Source: Candidatus Woesearchaeota archaeon (GTDB taxonomy: Archaea; Nanobdellota; Nanobdellia; Pacearchaeales; UBA284). Taken from it: a DNA stretch of 64,000 nt. The stretch is taken from the NCBI GenBank assembly GCA_964354405.1, contig CAYGZP010000002.1, positions 71,671-135,670 of the forward strand, read 5' to 3'. Position 1 is the stretch's first letter; the number at the start of each line of letters is the position of its first letter. The position numbers and the translations under genes were made by a program. Below the pieces are notes generated by a model, which worked only from the letters and a program-made list of their open reading frames with translations, had not been told where the DNA came from and made no database searches. This document shows, in pieces, positions 8,024 through 63,901 of the stretch.

Positions 8024-9133
8024 TTAAATCTTTTTTCCTATCAACGCTTGCTCTTTCAAATTCTCAAGATCTTTGACAAGTTTTCTCGTGTCTTTTTCTC
8101 CAATAAGCCCTGTAAGTTTGCTCGACTGCACGCTTAAAGTATCAATCAAAGCTTGCAAGTTCCCAAAAGTTTCCATAAGTCTCTCGACAGACTCGTGGCT
8201 TATTGAAGTTTTGCTCAATAATCTATAACCTTTTGGTTTGACGGAGTCAGTTATACTTGAATAAAGCAGGATCTGCGCGATATTGCTGGGCTCGAGCAAT
8301 TCATCTAAAGATAATGATGGCAACGCGGTCTTAGAAAAATCCCAATTTCTGCTATAGTCTTTCAAAAGCAAATCTTTCTCTTTCTCCAAATCTTTTATAA
8401 CCTCTTTCAAGAGCATCTTGACAAGGTTTCCCTCGACTCCTAATTCAATGATATATTTTTTTATTGTCCTTGCGATTCTCGATATGATTTCCATTCGCTG
8501 TATGCACAAAGCAACTTCATTGAGGGTTATGAAATTTGTAAATTCAAGAATATTCAAGTTCACGAGCAACTCATTCAAGATTTCTCGATGTTTTTCCAAC
8601 ATTCTCAGAGTTTCAGTAGCCTTGCTCAATATCTCTTCAGAGCTTCTGAGGACATATCTTGTGTTTTTGTAATATAATGTTATAGTTTTTCTTCTTTCCG
8701 AGACTGCTATAACCGGCCTTGTTGTCTGTTTGGCTGTTCTTTCAGCTGCTCTGTGTCTTGTTCCTGTTTCATTAGTATCGATGTTCGCATCCGGCACAAG
8801 CTGGGTGTTGCAGCAAACAATTTTTTTCAAATCATCAGAGAGAATTATAGCACCATCCATCTTGCAAAGCTCAACAAGTTGCTGAGGAGTAAATTTAGAG
8901 CCAATTTTTATGCCGCCGTTAGTAATCTTAAGCACTTCAGGAGAATCTCCCAACACAATCAACGCACCCATCCCCGCACGGGCGATATCTTCTATGGCAG
9001 CGCGCAAATATGTTCCGGGAGTCATTGGCTTTAAAACACTCAAAAGCTCCTCGAACTCTCTCTCTTTCTTCTCATCTTCCAGGGCTTTAAGCTCAAGCTC
9101 TTCCTTAAACTCCTCTTCTTTTTTGTCAGTCAT
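8024..9133 (-). CDS. disA: DNA integrity scanning protein DisA (diadenylate cyclase, DAC domain + linker + HhH)
   Basis: 369 aa; it can be aligned along its whole length to bacterial DisA. Diagnostic motifs are GALIVLG, MDGAIILSDD (DGA) and ETGTRHRAAERTAKQT (RHR). A PKGYRLLSKT linker segment and a C-terminal helix-hairpin-helix region are also present. Confidence 0.85.
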   Translation of the reverse strand: MTDKKEEEFKEELELKALEDEKKEREFEELLSVLKPMTPGTYLRAAIEDIARAGMGALIVLGDSPEVLKITNGGIKIGSKFTPQQLVELCKMDGAIILSDDLKKIVCCNTQLVPDANIDTNETGTRHRAAERTAKQTTRPVIAVSERRKTITLYYKNTRYVLRSSEEILSKATETLRMLEKHREILNELLVNLNILEFTNFITLNEVALCIQRMEIISRIARTIKKYIIELGVEGNLVKMLLKEVIKDLEKEKDLLLKDYSRNWDFSKTALPSLSLDELLEPSNIAQILLYSSITDSVKPKGYRLLSKTSISHESVERLMETFGNLQALIDTLSVQSSKLTGLIGEKDTRKLVKDLENLKEQALIGKKI

Positions 9134-13835: not shown

Positions 13836-14555
13836 TTACAAAGTTTTTAACACTAGCATCAGGGCCAAACCAATTATTATGAAAATGAACTGCAAAAGGG
13901 ATTCTGAAACCCTGGTTTTTTTATGCAATTCTGGAATCAAATCAGTTGCAGCAATATAGATAAAGCCTCCTGCTGCAAATGGCAAAAGAAATGCTACGTT
14001 AATTGCAGAACCAATGAAATAGCCAGTTAATGCCCCAAAGAATGCTGTCAAAGCAATTAAGAAATTATAAAATAGGGCCTTACTTTTCTTGAAACCGCCA
14101 TAAACTAAAACCCCAAATTCTCCTATTTCCTGGGGAATTTCGTGCATGATCACTGCAATCGTAGTTGTAATCCCGAGGTTTAAGTTTATTAAATAAGCAG
14201 CTGCAATGATTAAACCATCAATAAAGTTATGCAAGGCATCGCCGAAAAGAATTGCGTAGTTAAAGGGGTGAATAGAACAATGTTTTTTATGACAGTGCCT
14301 CCAATGCAAAAATTTTTCAAGAATAAAGAAGCTTAGAATCCCAAAAATTACGAATAAAGAAGCTTTTTCTATCCCCAATTCAAGTGATTCTGGCAAAAGA
14401 TGGAAAAAAGCTCCTCCAAGCAATGCACCTGAAGCTAAAGCTATCAATAAGGTAAGGATTTTGTTAAGAAATTTTTCTTTTATTGCTAAAAAGACTATTC
14501 CTACAAGAGATATTAAGCTTACTACAGCTACAGAAATTAAAATCCACAGCAACAT
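13836..14555 (-). CDS. zupT: ZIP family divalent metal transporter (ZupT-like)
   Basis: 239 aa; multi-TM protein with HNFIDGL and HEIPQEIGEFGVL signature motifs. Confidence 0.8.
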   Translation of the reverse strand: MLLWILISVAVVSLISLVGIVFLAIKEKFLNKILTLLIALASGALLGGAFFHLLPESLELGIEKASLFVIFGILSFFILEKFLHWRHCHKKHCSIHPFNYAILFGDALHNFIDGLIIAAAYLINLNLGITTTIAVIMHEIPQEIGEFGVLVYGGFKKSKALFYNFLIALTAFFGALTGYFIGSAINVAFLLPFAAGGFIYIAATDLIPELHKKTRVSESLLQFIFIIIGLALMLVLKTL

Positions 14556-14593: not shown

Positions 14594-15565
14594 CTATAAA
14601 AGTTCCATCGCTTTCTCAAGCATAATCATCTCTTCATTAGCCTTGACAACAGCTGTCCCAAACTTCAAAGGCAGATAGCCGCAGATTTTATTTCTTATGA
14701 ACTCGCTCTCCTCGCCGATTCCCCCAGAGAAAACAACAAAATCAATGTAACCCAATGCAGCTTTGTATGCGCAGACTTGTTTCGCTATATTATAACAGAA
14801 AATATCTAAAGCCTGGGCATTTTTAACATCCCCCCTCCTGTCAACAATCTTTTTTACATCTCTCGAGCCAGTCAAACCATATAATCCACATTCATTATTC
14901 AAAATATCTTTAGCTTTCTTCAATCCAAATTGTTCTACAAGAAACAAAACAATTCCAGGATCTATGCTCCCCGCTCTTGTCACCATCATGATTCCTTCTA
15001 AAGGTGTCAGCCCCATGCTTACATCAAGTGCTTTTCCCTTTGATATAGCTGCAACACTGCATCCCGCTCCGAGATGGCATGAAACAATATTCTTGTCAGG
15101 GAAATGTTTCGCGATATACTCGTGATTCAACCCATGGAACCCATAACGCTTAATTCCATATTTCTTCGAGATTGCCGTCGGCAAAGCATAAGTTTTTGCT
15201 TTGTCAGGAAGCTCAGTAAAGAAAGAAGTGTCAAAGACAGCGATTTGTTTAGCATGTTTCGCGCATTTCTGGGATAACTTGATTACTTCAAGCTCGCGGG
15301 GATTGTGCAAAGGAGCGAACTTAGAGTATTTCACAATCTCCTTAATAATTTTTGCAGTTATGAAACAAGGCTTGCTCAACTCGCCGCCATGAACCACTCT
15401 GTGGGCAATACAAGAAGGATTACATTTCTTCACAGCCTCGCGGACAATCTTCTGATAATCCTTGGATTTGTTTGTACAGAAGGTTTTTTTCTCCTTCAAG
15501 TTCTTGTTATCATAAAAACTGTATTTCACTGTCTCTGAACCAACATTAAATATCAAAAATCTCAT
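14594..15565 (-). CDS. ackA: acetate (acyl) kinase, compact form
   Basis: 323 aa; motifs NVGSETVKY, HRVVHGG, PLHNP, FDTSFF, YGFHGLNH, HLGAGCSV, GLTPLEG...GSIDPG. It overlaps the CooS-like stop by 4 nt. Confidence 0.8.
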   Translation of the reverse strand: MRFLIFNVGSETVKYSFYDNKNLKEKKTFCTNKSKDYQKIVREAVKKCNPSCIAHRVVHGGELSKPCFITAKIIKEIVKYSKFAPLHNPRELEVIKLSQKCAKHAKQIAVFDTSFFTELPDKAKTYALPTAISKKYGIKRYGFHGLNHEYIAKHFPDKNIVSCHLGAGCSVAAISKGKALDVSMGLTPLEGIMMVTRAGSIDPGIVLFLVEQFGLKKAKDILNNECGLYGLTGSRDVKKIVDRRGDVKNAQALDIFCYNIAKQVCAYKAALGYIDFVVFSGGIGEESEFIRNKICGYLPLKFGTAVVKANEEMIMLEKAMELL

Positions 15566-17148
15566 TTTTTAGTTTTTGCCCTCGTTTTTCTTAAGTTTTC
15601 TTTCTTTATTATTCTTTTGAACAAGTGCTCGGGAGAGGTTTCAAGGAAAACTCTGCTTTCAAACTTGTCTCGCAATACATTTTCCAAGAACTGGGCGATG
15701 GTTGTGTCGCTTGATATCATGAAAGGATAGCCAAAATGAACATCGACTCCCAAGGAAGCAAAAAACATTCCAATTGCGATGGCTTTTTCAGTTATCGGCA
15801 TCGGACATGATATCAAGAAAGGCATGTCAGTTATTCTCTTGCCACTCAATTCCGAAATTCTTTTAAAAACTTCCGCGATTCTCGAGTTGTTAACACAAGA
15901 ACCCATGTGATAAACTCGCTTGCCATCCAACAATCCATTCTGTCCGAACTTGAAAGCCATGCATCCTGTAGTAAGAATAATATAATCTTTGCTTAATTTC
16001 TTATATATTGGAATCCAATCTTCTTTAACTCGGGGGTTTGCACATCCAACCACTCCGATAATCCCTTTGACCTTTCCTTTCTCAAGTTGCTCTTGCCATT
16101 TTTGCAGAGGCAAATTGTCCTCGGAAAAACCCACAACAACTTCTCTCCTTACTTTCTTGAGTGAGATTTCCTTTCTCTTTCTTCTGTTCGCTCTTGCAAG
16201 CTGGATAATTTTCTTCGCGTTTTCCTCAGCTTCTTTAGGATTTCTGAAAGGCATATGCATTGCATTAGGGATTCTGCATAATTTGTTAGTTGTTATAAGA
16301 ACAGTATGATAACACTCGCACAAATCAGCCAAGGAGGGCATAATGCATTGAACATCTACAACCATTGCCTCGACAGCTCCTGAAGCAATCACATCCTCCT
16401 GCAGAATAAAATGTGCAGCCATCGGGATTCCATATCTCGCCAGAACACTCGCGCCAGTGCAGCAGACTCCAATCAGATTGATATCTTTATTTTCGGGCTT
16501 TTTCATCTCTTTCGCAAGAGCAATCGCCAACATGGGCTCGTGTCCATGAACCGCGATATTCACTTTATCCTCGCGAATAACCCCCATATCCAAAATTCCC
16601 TTTCTAACTTCAGGCTTGCCATAATATCTGTCCTCAAGTTCTGTAGCGAGATACAATCCATAATAACCGTCAACAATCCCCATCCTCATTGTTCTTTTTA
16701 ATATGCTCGTGTAGTCTGCATCAACACCCATTGATGAGGCATGCAAGGCTTCGCTGATGTCTTTGAAATGCTCAAAATGAATCACAGGCACAATTCCCAA
16801 CTCTTGCCATAACTTGTAAAGATAGCTCGGAGCCTTTTTTTCAATATAAAGTTGAGGATAATCTAATTCCAAAAAGTTTTTGAGATGATAAGCATGTCCG
16901 ACATGGCAAGCTGCTCCTGCAGCTGCAAATCTCAATAAATTGCGAGCCACAACCAAATCTTGATTTGCTCCGCACACTCCTCGTTGTTCTTTTGCCACAA
17001 CTCTGCAAGGCCCCATCAAGCAGTTCCTGCAGCACTTGCCCTGCAATCCTATAGGACAAGGAGCCATTAGTTTCTCCCTTTCGCAAACTAATGGGATATT
17101 GCATTTCTTTTTTTTCTCTATCTTCTTTTTTTTCTTCTCTTTTTTCAT
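15562..17148 (-). CDS. cooS: CooS-family protein (Ni,Fe-CO dehydrogenase catalytic subunit-like), compact
   Basis: N-terminal CPIGLQGKCCRNCLMGPCR...GVCGANQDLVVARNLLRFAAAGAACHVGHAYH matches the CooS B/D-cluster region. Downstream VHGHEPMLAIAL, IGVCCTGAS, TTGCMAF, HMGSCVNNSR and VGCANP match the C-cluster ligand segments. The true start may be the internal MAPCPIG near 17067, because the Lys-rich N-terminus derives from a homopolymer tract. Confidence 0.7.
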   Translation of the reverse strand: MKKEKKKKKIEKKKKCNIPLVCEREKLMAPCPIGLQGKCCRNCLMGPCRVVAKEQRGVCGANQDLVVARNLLRFAAAGAACHVGHAYHLKNFLELDYPQLYIEKKAPSYLYKLWQELGIVPVIHFEHFKDISEALHASSMGVDADYTSILKRTMRMGIVDGYYGLYLATELEDRYYGKPEVRKGILDMGVIREDKVNIAVHGHEPMLAIALAKEMKKPENKDINLIGVCCTGASVLARYGIPMAAHFILQEDVIASGAVEAMVVDVQCIMPSLADLCECYHTVLITTNKLCRIPNAMHMPFRNPKEAEENAKKIIQLARANRRKRKEISLKKVRREVVVGFSEDNLPLQKWQEQLEKGKVKGIIGVVGCANPRVKEDWIPIYKKLSKDYIILTTGCMAFKFGQNGLLDGKRVYHMGSCVNNSRIAEVFKRISELSGKRITDMPFLISCPMPITEKAIAIGMFFASLGVDVHFGYPFMISSDTTIAQFLENVLRDKFESRVFLETSPEHLFKRIIKKENLRKTRAKTKK

Positions 17149-17975
17149 TTTTTCTTTTTTCTCAGTTCATCAACTTGTAGAACAGTTATCGCAGCCAAGT
17201 TTACAATATCTTGTATTGAGCATCCTCTTGACAAATCATTTACTGGCTTGTTCAAGCCCTGTAATATCGGGCCGATAGCATGCCATCCTGCAAATCTTTC
17301 AACAAGCTTGTAGCCAATGTTACCTGCATCGAGGCAAGGGAAAATCAAAACATTATAAGCTAAAGCTTTCGCGCCCTTCATTCTGGCTACATTCAAGTTC
17401 AGCGCCGCGTCAGCTTGAATCTCACCTTCAACATTCAAATCTGTTTGTTTTAAAATTTTTACAGCCTCGCGCACATTATCAACACTCAAGCCCTTGCCCG
17501 AGTCCTTGGTAGAATAAGACAACATCGCTACTACAGGCTCAGTTTTTGTGATAAGTTTGAAAGTTTTCGCGCTCAGCTCTGCAATTTCAGCGAGCTGTTC
17601 TGGATTCGGCTCAGGCTGCGCAGCGCAGTCAGCGAAGAGCATCGCGCTTTTCTTGTCAGGCGATATCATGAGAAAAGCACCGCTGGTTCTCTTGACTTCT
17701 GGCGCCATAAACTTAAAAGCAAGATATAATGTCATCGAGCTTGAATGAGAAGCTCCAGTTATTATCGCATCTGCCTCGTTGTTGTGCAGCATTAACTCTG
17801 CTTTCTCAAGATTTTTCTCAATTCTCCTGTCTTTCAATGTAATCACTTTAGCTATATTTTCATCTTCTATAATTTGTATCGCTTTGTTCACTCTAGAATC
17901 CTGCTCGGGAAAAACAATCCTCACAACTCGATGTTTGTTAATCCCTCTAGCTCTTTTTCTTATATTCTCAATCAT
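17145..17975 (-). CDS. pta: phosphate acetyl/butyryl-transferase (Pta/Ptb family)
   Basis: 276 aa; it has the fold signature of Pta/Ptb phosphotransacylases and its stop overlaps the CooS-like start (ATGA). Confidence 0.75.
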   Translation of the reverse strand: MIENIRKRARGINKHRVVRIVFPEQDSRVNKAIQIIEDENIAKVITLKDRRIEKNLEKAELMLHNNEADAIITGASHSSSMTLYLAFKFMAPEVKRTSGAFLMISPDKKSAMLFADCAAQPEPNPEQLAEIAELSAKTFKLITKTEPVVAMLSYSTKDSGKGLSVDNVREAVKILKQTDLNVEGEIQADAALNLNVARMKGAKALAYNVLIFPCLDAGNIGYKLVERFAGWHAIGPILQGLNKPVNDLSRGCSIQDIVNLAAITVLQVDELRKKKK

Positions 17976-20468: not shown

Positions 20469-20738
20469 TTAACAGTTGATTTTCAGCTCCTTTGCGTTTA
20501 CTATGGCATCTGACACCTTTTTTCTTGCTTTTAGCAAAACCCTATGAAATGTGGGTTGGGAGATTCCCATGGCTTTTGCAGCCTTTTTCTGCTCCATCCC
20601 TATAACATCTTTGAGCCTTAAGGCTTCCAGCTCCTCTCTCGCCAAGTACAAAGTATCGAGGACGAGTGGTACAATTGGTACAAAATCCTCGCACTTTATT
20701 TCACAGCTTGTTTTTTTCAGTTTTTTTGGGCGCGCCAT
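20469..20738 (-). CDS. DUF134 (UPF0251) family predicted DNA-binding regulator
   Basis: MARPKKLKK...LYLAREELEALRLKDVIGMEQKKAAKAMGISQPTFHRVLLKARKKVSDAIVNAKELKI matches the DUF134 pattern, a sigma-70 region-4-like HTH. The track ORF (to 20936) probably over-extends the N-terminus. Confidence 0.6.
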   Translation of the reverse strand: MARPKKLKKTSCEIKCEDFVPIVPLVLDTLYLAREELEALRLKDVIGMEQKKAAKAMGISQPTFHRVLLKARKKVSDAIVNAKELKINC

Positions 20739-20909
20739 TTTCAGTGACAGCATTAGCCAGAGCCAGTGACACCTCCTCTTACTCAGTAGATATATTATGA
20801 ATATATATTCATAACCATATTTAAATATTTCTATCTTGTCACTATTCTGTTTTTGATATAACTTTCTGAGCACAATAATCTTTTTTAGGGGTAGAAAAAT
20901 AATAGGGCC

Positions 20910-21635
20910 ATGGTTGAGGGATTTAGCGAAGCACATTTAGAATTTATTCAACATTTAAAACCACAATTAGTTGAGCACGACTACATTGTTCCACTAAAAA
21001 ATTTTGATGAGTTGCATAGAATACTTTCTCATTTATCTTGCGGTGCGCGCAAATTATCAAATGAAGAATATGGTTATTTTGGTGCTCGTAATTTATACAG
21101 TACTCTACGATTTTGTAAATTTTGTCCAGTTGAAGATTTACCAACGCTCTATGCTGGAACAAGCAGCGAGGGTCTCGGGGCTTTTATAGGTTTCCCAAAA
21201 GAAATTTATCAAATAACTACTTCTATTGGTGTAGAATTCGGCAAGGCAGAAGAAATGCTTCGCGCCTATTTAAATACATGGCATAAAATTTTAGAAAATA
21301 AATCTCTTGAATTATTGTCAGATTCAGAAAATGAACATTTTCCAACTCGTAGCATTGCTAATAACAGCCCGATTAATGAGATGTTCTTTTCATTCTGGGA
21401 TCTTTTGTTTGATTTAGAAGAAGTTGTAAAAAAGAAAGAAGAACATCCACATGGTGATAAGTATAAGTATAAATTTAAGATTTGTTCAGATCATAACAAT
21501 GAAGATTCTTTGTCGCAATTAAGACCTATATACATAGAAATGACAAGAGGGCGCTTTAAGAAGTATGATTTAGCTCTTCAAGAGGGGGATATAGAAATTA
21601 TTTTTAGTAAAAAGAAAATTTTTAGTTTAGATTAA
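20910..21635 (+). CDS. hypothetical protein (241 aa)
   Basis: Intact ORF divergent from the DUF134 gene; no recognisable motif. Confidence 0.4.
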   Translation: MVEGFSEAHLEFIQHLKPQLVEHDYIVPLKNFDELHRILSHLSCGARKLSNEEYGYFGARNLYSTLRFCKFCPVEDLPTLYAGTSSEGLGAFIGFPKEIYQITTSIGVEFGKAEEMLRAYLNTWHKILENKSLELLSDSENEHFPTRSIANNSPINEMFFSFWDLLFDLEEVVKKKEEHPHGDKYKYKFKICSDHNNEDSLSQLRPIYIEMTRGRFKKYDLALQEGDIEIIFSKKKIFSLD

Positions 21636-29454: not shown

Positions 29455-29874
29455 ATGACAACAATTCATTATGAAAATGCCGAGGACATCAAGAGAAAAA
29501 TTGAATTAATTGTCCGAATTCTCGATATGAAACATGTCAATCCATCTCGAGTCTATTGTATCAGGAGCCATGGCTCGAGTTCTCGAGGAATAATCGCGAG
29601 ATGTCATTCGCTGCCAAAAATCATGCAGCAAGTTCTCGCGATAGAGCCCGCATACATAATTGAGGTTATCAGCGAGAGTTTTGACAAGCAAAAGGAAGAA
29701 GAACAAGTCAAAACTTTAATTCATGAACTCATGCACATCCCAAAAACATTCGGCGGAGGATTCTTGCATCACAATGTTGTGACTCGAACAAAAATAGACA
29801 GACTTTACAACAAATTCCGCCAGTTCCAAAGTTCGTCGCTGTCAAGTAAAAATATCGTCGAGCAAAAGATTTAA
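29455..29874 (+). CDS. putative HExxH zinc metallopeptidase (SprT/WLM-like minimal zincin)
   Basis: 139 aa; single LIHELMHIP HExxH motif followed by a Gly-rich segment (KTFGGGFLHHN). Confidence 0.4.
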   Translation: MTTIHYENAEDIKRKIELIVRILDMKHVNPSRVYCIRSHGSSSRGIIARCHSLPKIMQQVLAIEPAYIIEVISESFDKQKEEEQVKTLIHELMHIPKTFGGGFLHHNVVTRTKIDRLYNKFRQFQSSSLSSKNIVEQKI

Positions 29875-60255: not shown

Positions 60256-60627
60256 TCACTTATCTTTCTCAAAGAATTTGAATGTCGACGCAATATCAAT
60301 GATATACTTGCCTTCCTCAAGCTTGTAGATGACTGGTTTTTTCTTGAACAGCGATACAATATCAATCTCAAACTTGCCTGGTTTGGTTATTTTAATTGAT
60401 TCCAAGTCAAGAATCACTGGTTTATCAATCTCCGACCCTATAACCTCTTTGATATCCTCCATAATCTCCTCTCTCTCAACCTTTGTCAATTTCTCAGTCT
60501 CTTCTTTCATCAATATATCTTCATTCCTGAAAAAGAAAAAATAATGGCTCCCGCATTCACAGCCTTTCAAAATCTCAGGAGCTGTTGACTCATAAATATT
60601 GCCGCATTTAACACATCTGTGACTCAT
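60256..60627 (-). CDS. zinc-ribbon domain protein (123 aa)
   Basis: CVKCGN...x14...CECGS ribbon at the N-terminus followed by a Lys/Glu-rich domain. Confidence 0.4.
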   Translation of the reverse strand: MSHRCVKCGNIYESTAPEILKGCECGSHYFFFFRNEDILMKEETEKLTKVEREEIMEDIKEVIGSEIDKPVILDLESIKITKPGKFEIDIVSLFKKKPVIYKLEEGKYIIDIASTFKFFEKDK

Positions 60628-60674
60628 GATTAATTTAAAACTCGATAGTTTTTATTCTTTTCTATGATTCAGGA

Positions 60675-61058
60675 CTATTTTCTAAGAAGCAGTTGTAATT
60701 TTGTCGGGTCTTTTTTGATTTCCCGCACAACTGTTGCTGGCCCGATTATTGTGAAAACATCACGATTAGCACCAAGTAAAGCTTTGGCGAGATTTTCCTT
60801 GATTGACTGTCCGAAAGGCAAGTTTTTTGTTTTTGGTGCGAAACTTGCAAGCTCGATGCCCTTGAATCTCGAGCTCCCCCGAATCTTTTTCATTGTCTCT
60901 TGAATTAAATCAGCTTCCTCTTCCGAAGCGAGTTTACCCTGAACAAGAAGAATCTTGTCTTCTGTAACCAAATCTATAAGTCTTTTAACTCTCTGAAATG
61001 AAGTTAGATAAGCAATTTCACCATAAGGCACAAATTGTAATGTTACATTTTTTGCCAT
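60675..61058 (-). CDS. hypothetical protein (127 aa), weak SepF-like alpha/beta pattern
   Basis: KILLVQGKLASEEEADLIQETMKKIRG resembles the SepF core (vVvnL..l..e.a.RiiDFl.G); weak, inference only. Confidence 0.25.
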   Translation of the reverse strand: MAKNVTLQFVPYGEIAYLTSFQRVKRLIDLVTEDKILLVQGKLASEEEADLIQETMKKIRGSSRFKGIELASFAPKTKNLPFGQSIKENLAKALLGANRDVFTIIGPATVVREIKKDPTKLQLLLRK

Positions 61059-62602: not shown

Positions 62603-63901
62603 TCACTCAACATCCGAAGGCCAGATGATTGTGCAAGGCTCACTGACTCCATTCATGCACTCATCATAGCATTTCACAAACCAAGGGGCGCCGTCCCATA
62701 TCGTTCTATGTTCACTATCGCCAGTTGGTTCAAATTTCTTAGCATTTAAAGTATTGTTTGCCATAAAGTTACAGTTATCTATCTTATTGCCAAAAGCATA
62801 ATGATATGTACATGTAGCTCTCTCGTCAGTTCTCAAGACTAAACTTCCTGAATCTTTGTATAATCGTGTGACTAAAGGCACGACATTATCAACCTTAACT
62901 TCAAAAGTAGTTGAATTCTGAACAATGTTCGCGACATCCTTGCAGGAGATTTCTATAGTATTCATACCCATGCTAACTCCTGCTTTAGTTTCATGACTCG
63001 TGTCTCCTGTCTCGCTGAATACAGTCCATATCGTTTCAGTAGGTTTTTTCCAATAGCATGTCGCAACGCCATTATTAGTTCCTTCAGCTGTTGTAACTTT
63101 CAAATCCACTCGAGGAGTGAACCCGCAGCCACTTACAACAGCGCCATCAGCAGGTTCAATGCTTGTAACAAGTAAAGGAGGCGCAGGGAAAAGTTCAAGC
63201 ACATAACTTTGAGGCATTGTATTGTTCTGAGGACTCATATCTTTGCATCTCAAATAGAAGAAATTAGTAACCTCAGGCTGCAATCCGGTTAATGTAGTTC
63301 TCCCAAAGAAATTTATTCCAGTAATCTCAGAAACATTAAATTCGTTGCTCATCTGTTCATAAATTACATCTTGTTTAGCCCATCTGCAAGTCGCGGGCTC
63401 ATTAGTGTAAACATATAATGTTAATTGCTCAACTCTTCCAATGCTTGAGCCAGTTGCCGGAGATGTCGCAACTATTTCAGGCGCGGTAGTATCCGGCTCT
63501 GTACAAACTTCAAATAAAACAGTGTCTGTATTCGCTCTATTATCATTTCTATCTCGGCATTTATAATAAATTGTATGCGAGCCGTTTTGTGTCGGAGTGA
63601 ACTTAGTTTCAAACATGTGCTCTTGCCAATATCCATTATCACCAAAATAAGCCATAGGATTATCAAAGTCAAGTGATTGATTATCTAAATCAAGGATACA
63701 TTGGGCCCTTTCATCTGTTGTTAAGTTAAAGCTTATTGGCATCCATGCTTTGACACAAGGTGAAGCGCTCTTACAACCATATTCATTGTTTTCAATCTTT
63801 TTCTTGCACGAGATATATCTTGGGGCGGTTGTGTCATTTTGATTCTCCCATACACATCTTCCAGTGTTGCTATTAAACACGCATGCTTGTCCTAAGCTCA
63901 A
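62603..63901 (-). CDS. secreted Cys-rich hypothetical protein, possibly N-terminally truncated by window edge
   Basis: 432 aa with many Cys and N-glycosylation-like NxT/S sites; the reading frame may continue upstream beyond 63901 to the window end. Confidence 0.35.
   Translation of the reverse strand: MSLGQACVFNSNTGRCVWENQNDTTAPRYISCKKKIENNEYGCKSASPCVKAWMPISFNLTTDERAQCILDLDNQSLDFDNPMAYFGDNGYWQEHMFETKFTPTQNGSHTIYYKCRDRNDNRANTDTVLFEVCTEPDTTAPEIVATSPATGSSIGRVEQLTLYVYTNEPATCRWAKQDVIYEQMSNEFNVSEITGINFFGRTTLTGLQPEVTNFFYLRCKDMSPQNNTMPQSYVLELFPAPPLLVTSIEPADGAVVSGCGFTPRVDLKVTTAEGTNNGVATCYWKKPTETIWTVFSETGDTSHETKAGVSMGMNTIEISCKDVANIVQNSTTFEVKVDNVVPLVTRLYKDSGSLVLRTDERATCTYHYAFGNKIDNCNFMANNTLNAKKFEPTGDSEHRTIWDGAPWFVKCYDECMNGVSEPCTIIWPSDVE

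Follow-up and report, generated by a model that had tools for sequence, protein, structure and literature searches.

A predicted compact CooS-type carbon monoxide dehydrogenase encoded between pta and ackA in a Pacearchaeales archaeon

The cooS locus and the family assignment of its product

We analyzed a window of 64,000 nucleotides (64 kb) from a Candidatus Woesearchaeota archaeon (Pacearchaeales, UBA284; assembly GCA_964354405.1, contig CAYGZP010000002.1, positions 71,671 to 135,670 of the forward strand), and we focus on a gene of its reverse strand, cooS, which is predicted to encode a short form of the catalytic subunit of anaerobic carbon monoxide dehydrogenase (CODH). The open reading frame (ORF; 15562..17148) starts with ATG, has an intact frame, and encodes 528 amino acids (aa). 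It belongs to an array of genes on the same strand, with overlaps, that comprises a DUF134 gene, iorA, iorB, pta, cooS, ackA, and a ZIP permease gene (Table 1). Overlaps of 4 nt (ATGA) flank cooS on both sides: the stop codon of pta overlaps the start of cooS (17148-17145), and the stop codon of cooS overlaps the start of ackA (15565-15562).

An earlier reading of this DNA, made from the letters and without database searches (hereafter the sequence-only reading), had described the product as a compact protein of the CooS family. Pfam, NCBIfam, the PDB, and structure prediction all place it there. The match to PF03063 (Prismane/CODH) has an E-value of 8.8e-109 and a score of 364.9 bits, for a cutoff of 27, and the top NCBIfam model is TIGR01702 (CO_DH_cata), the one for the anaerobic CODH catalytic subunit. 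Among the proteins of the PDB, the ranking starts with CODH-IV of C. hydrogenoformans (6elq, 1.3e-99), followed by the CODHs of Thermococcus AM4 and D. vulgaris, by CODH-II (3e-84), and by R. rubrum CooS; the enzymes of clades E and F match at 1e-84 to 1e-99. The matches to the Ni-free CODH-V (7b7q, 2.7e-38), to the alpha subunit of the acetyl-CoA decarbonylase/synthase complex (ACDS, 1e-14), and to hybrid-cluster proteins (HCPs, 8e-8 or weaker) are far weaker. An AlphaFold2 (AF2) model computed from 72 family sequences has a mean predicted local distance difference test score (pLDDT) of 90.3 and a predicted template modeling score of 0.91, and residues 1-12, with pLDDT below 50, are its sole disordered part. 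The best 50 Foldseek matches of this model in the PDB are all Ni-CODHs, with query-normalized TM scores (TMq) of 0.85-0.89, and the three-domain CODH fold is retained. On the profile scores and the predicted fold, we assign the ORF to the CooS-type CODH family, and not to the HCPs, the grouping that would have spoken against the sequence-only reading.

Three other identities were considered and rejected. The HCP/hydroxylamine reductase models TIGR01703 and NF003658 score 47 bits (cutoff 361) and 40 bits (cutoff 367), and the C-terminal domain alone aligns with them. The model of CdhA (ACDS alpha, clade A), TIGR00314, scores 74 bits for a cutoff of 781. The Ni-free CODH-V type of clade D was set aside as well, since 7b7q scores far below the clade E/F enzymes and the cluster ligands of the compact CooS are canonical.

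To map the ligands, we aligned the protein with HMMER to CODH-IV and to the CODH of D. vulgaris and applied the ligand numbering of the literature. In CODH-II the ligands are C39 and C47 for the D-cluster, C48, C51, C56, and C70 for the B-cluster, and H261, C295, C333, C446, C476, and C526 for the C-cluster, with H93 and K563 as acid/base residues; the numbering in D. vulgaris CODH includes H266, C302, and C519. All the motifs quoted in the sequence-only reading are present (C31-x7-C39C40-x2-C43-x4-C48, GVC59GA, ARN, H201-G-H203-EP, C229C230TG, TGC396, and GSC418VNNSR), along with two further C-cluster motifs, QC268IMPS and GC369ANP. No His or Cys ligand is lost: each one of the D-, B-, and C-clusters is intact, and the spacing of the D-cluster pair, C31-x7-C39, is of the [4Fe-4S] type. 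To count conservation, we then aligned the query by MAFFT with 114 full-length relatives and with 66 representatives from outside the family. The 12 cluster ligands are invariant in all 115 family members, as are the equivalents of H93, H96, and K563, and the equivalent of I567 is found in 114 of them, while many of the outside representatives have substitutions at cluster-ligand or catalytic positions. The mean column identity in an alignment of 72 sequences (A1) is only 55%, in contrast to these invariant positions. The catalytic and electron-transfer ligands of the compact family are thus under strong purifying selection.

Table 1. Features of the cooS locus and of the encoded protein, in window positions
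Feature	Position	Strand	Evidence
Compact cooS gene	15562..17148	(-)	ORF list, PF03063, PDB 6elq, AF2 and Foldseek
Lys/Glu-rich N-terminal tail, residues 1-15 (11 Lys), predicted disordered	17104..17148	(-)	A-runs of 6-8 bases; pLDDT; relatives
Residues 16-27, Cys pair C16/C22 and conserved ERxxL helix, 5' of Met28	17068..17103	(-)	Conservation; helix 21-27 in model
D/B-cluster motif: C31 and C39, D (CX7C); C40, C43, C48, and C59, B	16972..17058	(-)	Aligned to CODH-IV C38/C46/C47/C50/C55/C69
H82 and H85, equivalents of CODH-II acid/base His93 and of His96	16894..16905	(-)	Alignment, 115/115
Deletion 1 junction, residues 94/95; about 51 aa of helical N-domain gone (CODH-IV 105-158)	16864..16869	(-)	Alignment
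H201-G-H203; H203, Fe1 ligand (CODH-II His261, D. vulgaris His266)	16540..16548	(-)	Alignment
GVC229C230TG; C230, Fe1 ligand (CODH-II Cys295); C229, conserved neighbor Cys	16453..16470	(-)	Alignment
QC268IMPS; C268, C-cluster ligand (CODH-II Cys333)	16333..16350	(-)	Alignment
VGC369ANP; C369, C-cluster ligand (CODH-II Cys446)	16033..16050	(-)	Alignment
TGC396; C396, C-cluster ligand (CODH-II Cys476)	15961..15969	(-)	Alignment
Deletion 2 junction, residues 410/411; about 20-27 aa gone between Cys476 and Cys526 equivalents	15916..15921	(-)	Alignment
GSC418VNNSR; C418, Ni ligand (CODH-II Cys526, D. vulgaris Cys519)	15880..15903	(-)	Alignment
TEK455A; K455, catalytic Lys563 equivalent; I459, Ile567 equivalent	15781..15792	(-)	Alignment
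DUF134 helix-turn-helix (HTH) protein, directly upstream of iorA	20469..20936	(-)	PF02001 4.5e-18
iorA, indolepyruvate:ferredoxin oxidoreductase (IOR) alpha subunit, 606 aa	18592..20412	(-)	TIGR03336 660 bits, cutoff 650.9
iorB, IOR beta subunit, 195 aa	17994..18581	(-)	PF01558; IOR beta models rank first in NCBIfam
pta, phosphate acyltransferase, 276 aa; stop overlaps cooS start	17145..17975	(-)	PF01515 7e-74; NF007233 3e-77
ackA-like acyl kinase, 323 aa; ATG overlaps cooS stop	14594..15565	(-)	PF00871 9e-81; TIGR00016 271 bits
ZIP-family metal permease, 38 bp downstream of ackA	13836..14555	(-)	PF02535 7e-43; weak ZupT match

Deletions, distribution, and start site of the compact family

The sequence-only reading had noted that the protein is more than 100 aa shorter than canonical CooS, and this holds: it lies about 105 aa below CODH-IV (633 aa) and, at 528 aa, falls short of the canonical form, which has about 600-680 aa and a complete helical N-domain. 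When the protein is compared with the median of 38 canonical representatives of 600-680 aa, the deficit resolves into five discrete gaps, of 51 aa after residue 94, of 20 aa after residue 410, and of 9 aa after each of residues 14, 219, and 346, and the match to TIGR01702 falls into two pieces at the deletions. All five gaps are common to every family member; among the other representatives, the full set is found only in one protein, P0121.

Relatives of this length are numerous. An exact look-up of the protein itself in the public gene-position index, with either possible start (528 or 501 aa), gave no entry. Among the matches listed, at least 120 clusters (at 90% identity) have 49-80% identity to the compact CooS, with a median length of 508 aa. 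The closest are proteins of Pacearchaeota metagenome-assembled genomes (MAGs), at 79-80% identity, and where the organism is named, the matches are nearly all from MAGs of Pacearchaeota, Woesearchaeota, or Nanoarchaeota. These relatives are called 'CODH catalytic subunit' in JGI and mostly 'hypothetical protein' in NCBI records, the latter as a result of scores below the cutoff of TIGR01702. In an exhaustive search of representatives at 50% identity, the family forms a single cluster (5e-176), followed by P0121 (2e-120) and then, from 6e-88 down, by canonical CooS of about 630 aa, which align to the query in two or three separate stretches. The family and P0121 were monophyletic in 100 of 100 neighbor-joining bootstraps. 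The canonical sequences beside which the family sits have CODH-IV, which has been assigned to clade F (PMC13056359), as their best match of solved structure.

We scanned one genome per GTDB species and found the compact form in 36 species, i.e., 31 DPANN archaea (Pacearchaeota, Woesearchaeota, Aenigmatarchaeota, Diapherotrites, and 'Nanoarchaeota') and 5 bacteria (two Elusimicrobia, of 61-63% GC, two Fibrobacteres, and one Bacteroidetes MAG). Since identical deletions are present in every member, in archaea and bacteria and across GC contents from 29% to 63%, compactness is an old and selected trait of the family, and neither a truncation nor a by-product of AT-rich genome reduction. The term 'minimal CODH', proposed in the sequence-only reading, is thus a fair description, but of the whole family, and not of something peculiar to the query gene.

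The same data bear on whether the gene is a decaying remnant, a truncated and pseudogene-like cooS in a reduced genome. Its length, its score below the NCBIfam cutoff, the naming of its relatives as hypothetical proteins, and the shortness of the adjoining pta and ackA genes could be read in this way. We rejected this reading as extremely improbable, and the conservation data contradict it: the frame is intact, the fold is predicted with confidence, more than 115 homologs of the same length and of 49-80% identity have invariant ligands, and the same architecture is found in Elusimicrobia at 61-63% GC. The truly degenerate relative, P0121, differs in that its ligands are lost.

P0121 is a public protein of 659 aa from a GC-rich organism. 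It has all the deletions of the compact family and is extended by about 150 aa at the C-terminus. Both D-cluster Cys and the equivalents of Cys295, Cys333, and Lys563 are lost, and the protein looks like a degenerate or neofunctionalized offshoot. Compact CooS at about 50% identity and of the same length was also observed in the bacterial loci L038-L041 (Elusimicrobia and Fibrobacteres; L numbers are our labels for related loci), therefore suggesting inter-domain transfer of the compact form. Finally, PIU75765.1, the sole Pacearchaeota CODH in Inoue 2019 (732 aa, with an FtrB-like fusion, classed as 'clade F others'), was considered as a family member and rejected, as it is far longer than the best 120 matches, of which the longest has 565 aa.

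The N-terminus of the compact CooS reads MKKEKKKKKIEKKKK CNIPLVCEREKL MAPCPIG. There are only two possible starts, ATG 17148 and ATG 17067 (Met28), and an in-frame stop lies six codons 5' of 17148. The sequence-only reading had seen the first 27 codons as Lys-rich and encoded by a homopolymer tract, and had proposed either an internal start near 17067 or an effect of tract length on expression. This part did not stand. Only residues 1-15 are Lys-rich, with 11 Lys, and residues 16-27 (CNIPLVCEREKL) are not. Instead of a single poly-A/poly-T homopolymer, the region between 17108 and 17160 has five A-runs with G between them, which are 6, 6, 6, 8, and 8 bases long. In all homologs with an intact N-terminus the first Cys is preceded by further residues (median of 16 aa), among which an (I/L)x(E/D)RL element is conserved; the conservation of R24 is at least 90%, and residues 21-27 form a helix in the AF2 model. 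Because R24 and this element lie upstream of Met28, we place the start of translation at ATG 17148, on the evidence of the homologs. Besides, with a start at Met28 the first Cys would be preceded by only 2 residues, and residue 28 is M, L, or Q among the relatives. Homologous N-termini, likewise rich in Lys and Glu and similar in length, are found in the closest relatives (e.g., MTKEVKENREKKVATINERLSLEPCP).

A misassigned N-terminus, with the start at Met28 or with A-tract slippage switching expression, is in our view very unlikely. It would draw on the GGGAG located 7-11 nt upstream of ATG 17067 and on the A-rich runs of the first 15 codons. The former is not decisive for the choice of start, and a Shine-Dalgarno-like motif precedes only around one quarter of 40 genes of the window, most of which have an A-rich context at -1 to -6, like ATG 17148. 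As for slippage, no A-run exceeds 8 bases, the runs lack conservation in the nearest relatives (L001, L007, and L008), and there is no sign of phase variation. The pta-cooS junction is a short A-rich spacer ending in AAAAATG in L001 and L007, and a spacer of mixed composition in L008.

As a further observation on this region, an extra Cys pair (CxxC or Cx5-6C) lies upstream of the D-cluster motif in 12 of the 115 members, including the query (C16/C22, 17083-17103), where it could provide an additional metal or disulfide site.

The operon and the neighbors of cooS in related loci

To study the genetic context, we searched 36 related loci with flanks of up to 10 kb on each side. The order pta-cooS-ackA is kept in all the relatives examined at 70% identity or more (L001/L010, L007/L011, L008, and L043). 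The genes iorAB lie upstream in L001/L010, downstream in L008, and are not adjacent in L007/L011 and L043, so that they adjoin the trio in three of these six loci. As the order of the trio is constant while iorAB changes position, pta-cooS-ackA is, in these loci, a conserved unit and iorAB a mobile partner. The DUF134 HTH protein, whose gene is also found near cooS in L027 and L030, is a possible regulator.

Both enzymes encoded beside cooS are short, AckA with 323 aa for models of about 400 aa and Pta with 276 aa for models of about 320 aa, and both score below equivalog cutoffs; the core motifs of AckA appear kept, as judged by eye.

Other members of the family have other neighbors. A Pyr_redox_2 flavoprotein (thioredoxin-reductase-like) is encoded directly downstream of cooS in L012, L025, L027, L030, and L031, and some members have kept a FAD/NAD-oxidoreductase neighbor like that of CODH-IV. 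A conserved 121-aa protein and a thioredoxin are encoded beside cooS in L013, L037, and L044. DUF1858 is found near cooS in two to three loci (L033, L020), its gene overlapping the cooS start in L033/L005, and a gene resembling the alpha subunit of 2-oxoacid:ferredoxin oxidoreductases in three. In the Bacteroidetes MAG (contig_116342, L006/L042; about 1-7570 in L006), a stand-alone gas-sensor domain, H-NOX (HNOB), is encoded 42 bp upstream of compact cooS, which also follows a HoxF-HoxU-HoxY-HoxH cluster for an NAD-linked [NiFe] hydrogenase, a setting that fits gas or redox chemistry. Pfam searches on the neighbors of the bacterial members and of other 'loners' revealed no recurrent partner. 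In an Aenigmatarchaeota MAG (L021:11537-12865), a 442-aa ORF located 10 bp downstream of compact cooS has a weak CobW/HypB/UreG match (21.5 bits, E-value of 1.9e-4); this GTPase-like protein is, in this single case, a possible alternative Ni chaperone.

Possible function and relation to known CODHs

We consider it fairly probable, from the conserved ligands and the predicted fold, that the compact CooS is a functional, minimal CooS-type Ni,Fe-CODH that converts CO and CO2. It would keep the dimer-bridging CX7C [4Fe-4S] D-cluster, the [4Fe-4S] B-cluster, the [Ni-4Fe-4S] C-cluster, and the His/Lys proton relay. The lost parts are peripheral: the helical N-domain is reduced by about 51 aa and the stretch ahead of the Ni-ligand Cys by about 20-27 aa, and three loops, each of about 9 aa, are gone. 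As a homodimer, the enzyme would catalyze the interconversion of CO and CO2, with two electrons passing via the B- and D-clusters to a ferredoxin-type partner, which it may have in common with IOR. With cooS translationally coupled within iorA-iorB-pta-cooS-ackA, the CO/CO2 couple would therefore be wired to the ferredoxin pool of a 2-oxoacid:ferredoxin oxidoreductase and to the conversion between acyl-CoA, acyl-phosphate, and ATP.

Such a system could work in two directions, both of which are possible. In the catabolic one, the oxidation of a 2-oxoacid by IOR would give acyl-CoA and CO2 and reduce ferredoxin; ATP would come from Pta and AckA, and the CODH would re-oxidize ferredoxin by reducing CO2 to CO, which would serve as electron sink. 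The net reaction would be 2-oxoacid + ADP + Pi -> acid + CO + ATP, and its stoichiometry would be balanced, as the CODH requires exactly what IOR gives off, one CO2 and two electrons. In the anabolic direction, a scavenged acid would be activated by AckA and Pta, the oxidation of CO to CO2 by the CODH would provide electrons of very low potential, and IOR would reductively carboxylate the acyl-CoA to a 2-oxoacid. CO oxidation is one of the few routes that reduce ferredoxin enough for reductive carboxylation, and IOR operates in this direction in methanogens. That IOR and the compact CODH carry out a redox-neutral 'decarbonylation' of 2-oxoacids, in which CO2 and two electrons leave as excreted CO and one ATP is gained via Pta and AckA, is a speculative idea that we hold to be unlikely. 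If true, hydrogenase-free Pacearchaeota would have an autonomous source of ATP, a fermentation that evolves CO and depends on CO-scavenging neighbors. Its mirror image, a CO-driven reductive carboxylation that salvages acids into amino-acid precursors, is possible.

Several observations weigh against a CO-converting enzyme tied to this operon. The score of TIGR01702, 341 bits, is below the equivalog cutoff of 478. The standard potential (E0') of the CO2/CO couple is about -520 mV, and ferredoxin-driven reduction of CO2 is uphill under standard conditions. Because of this potential, the catabolic direction would, by our own estimate, be feasible only at low partial pressure of CO. The 64-kb window has no CooC-like ORF with a deviant Walker A motif, no CooF, and no classical ferredoxin motif; the 36 related loci have one distant CooC-like deviant-Walker-A ORF, at 7.4 kb and on the opposite strand, and three small ORFs with a ferredoxin motif. 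The rarity of CooC in the window and in these loci leaves Ni insertion unexplained. CooC is, for comparison, frequent and not universal in clade E/F operons, of which 59-68% have it, and the maturation of ChCODH-II proceeds without CooC (PMC13056359). Most family members are not beside pta or ackA, being mostly 'loners' or having other neighbors, and the Pyr_redox_2, thioredoxin, and DUF1858 neighbors hint at other electron acceptors. In the literature, no short CooS has been assayed or characterized so far.

Some of these points would also be accounted for by a CooS scaffold without CO/CO2 turnover, with a Ni-free or altered cluster like those of ChCODH-V and HCPs, that reduces NO, hydroxylamine, or peroxide or feeds a thiol/disulfide relay. 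The sequence-only reading had likewise raised a CODH-derived enzyme of altered function. The lack of linkage to CooC (none in the window, one in 36 loci) fits this explanation, as do the thiol-redox and gas-related neighbors of other members (Pyr_redox_2, thioredoxin, DUF1858, and H-NOX in L042), DUF1858 being an HCP-associated redox-disulfide domain. Moreover, CODH-V of clade D indicates that the CODH fold can carry non-CO chemistry (PMC13056359). We nevertheless find it rather doubtful. The C-cluster ligands, including the equivalent of the Ni-binding Cys526, and the H93/K563 relay are invariant in all 115 members, whereas non-canonical representatives in the same alignment have substitutions at ligand or relay positions. 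The matches to CODH-V and HCPs are far weaker than those to active clade E/F enzymes, and FAD/NAD oxidoreductase neighbors are typical also of active clade E/F CODHs, CODH-IV included (PMC13056359). Hence, we keep a Ni,Fe-CODH as the preferred reading, of which the Ni content, activity, electron partner, and direction are inferred.

Among known enzymes, CODH-IV (6ELQ, clade F) is the best match of the compact CooS both in sequence and in structure (E-value of 2.6e-41, TMq of 0.87), and the two have in common the CX7C D-cluster motif, the B- and C-cluster ligands, and the His/Lys relay. CODH-IV differs in being only 33-40% identical, in having residues 105-158, residues from about 490 to 517, and three loops of about 9 aa that are absent from the query, and in its rubrerythrin/FNOR operon, in place of which the query sits inside pta-cooS-ackA. 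The ligands also map one to one onto CODH-II, and both CODH-II and R. rubrum CooS, the references of clade F, superpose with TMq of 0.87-0.88; these enzymes are about 105 aa longer and, unlike the query, linked to CooF, a hydrogenase, or CooC/J/T. For the proposed physiology, the closest cases are CO cycling in D. vulgaris and the CODH-driven pyruvate synthase of acetogens, in which a 2-oxoacid:ferredoxin oxidoreductase and CooS share the ferredoxin pool and CO2, as proposed here. They differ in having separate operons, a pyruvate:ferredoxin oxidoreductase instead of IOR, and a full-length CODH with CooC.

Short CooS proteins have been reported before. The mini-CooS of Thermosinus carboxydivorans (482 aa, clade G) has many internal deletions and keeps all 11 Cys and the His; it is reported to branch between clade A and all other clades and to adjoin cooF (PMC3328121, PMC8776680). 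It resembles the compact CooS in being well below 550 aa with its ligands kept, and is also uncharacterized; by its published description, the two differ in that the compact family lacks cooF and has its place in the tree next to clade F sequences of the CODH-IV type. Clade H, which was recognized only after the minimum length had been relaxed from 550 to 400 aa, comprises mostly metagenomic sequences (Inoue et al. 2022, PMC8776680). By this description, it is short and mostly metagenomic, like the compact family. The 2019 survey of CODHs left out sequences below 550 aa (PMC6344411), and a 2026 study of genetic contexts left out clades G and H (PMC13056359). In the literature that we searched, there was no description of a compact CooS of DPANN archaea or of a pta-cooS-ackA operon.

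The compact CooS is thus a real variant, and a clearly delimited one, of a known class of enzymes; the databases already contained it, but it had drawn no remark. The undescribed part is the operon context, which may be physiologically important. As a natural Ni-CODH scaffold of about 500 aa with all the catalytic elements, the compact form would show which parts are dispensable, and could be used for the engineering of CO2-reduction catalysts. NCBI annotation overlooks the family, and the CO metabolism of DPANN archaea is likely under-counted, because of the naming as 'hypothetical protein' of proteins that score below the cutoff and because of the length filter and clade exclusion of the surveys. 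A 2026 preprint that surveys complete Nanobdellota genomes describes Pacearchaeales as having no self-sustained ATP generation and no substrate-level phosphorylation besides pyruvate kinase, and is silent on CODH, Pta, and AckA (10.64898/2026.05.13.725050). In a close relative of the Pacearchaeales surveyed there, iorAB-pta-cooS-ackA is a candidate module for substrate-level phosphorylation with its own ferredoxin-balancing enzyme.

The rest of the window has archaeal markers, i.e., L15e, L10e, deoxyhypusine synthase, Nre, OapB/OapC, and EF-2, and searches with Rfam and ARAGORN over its 64 kb found no tRNA, rRNA, or any Rfam family. A PEP synthase/PPDK-type enzyme of 809 aa is encoded at 283-2712, about 12 kb from the operon; through it, pyruvate that the operon produces or uses could be connected to PEP. 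At 8024-9133 the window encodes a DisA-type diadenylate cyclase (DAC and DisA-linker domains); DAC genes are also found near cooS, NifU, and DUF1858 in the relatives L001 and L003. The origin-associated proteins OapC and OapB are encoded side by side (60256-61058 and 62603-63901), with an adjoining 432-aa ORF that has no Pfam match, and this neighborhood suggests that a replication origin may be nearby. Finally, a 139-aa ORF at 29455-29874, beside the S12/S7/EF-2 ribosomal cluster, matches the 'Putative phage metallopeptidase' family (PF18894, 1.4e-22).

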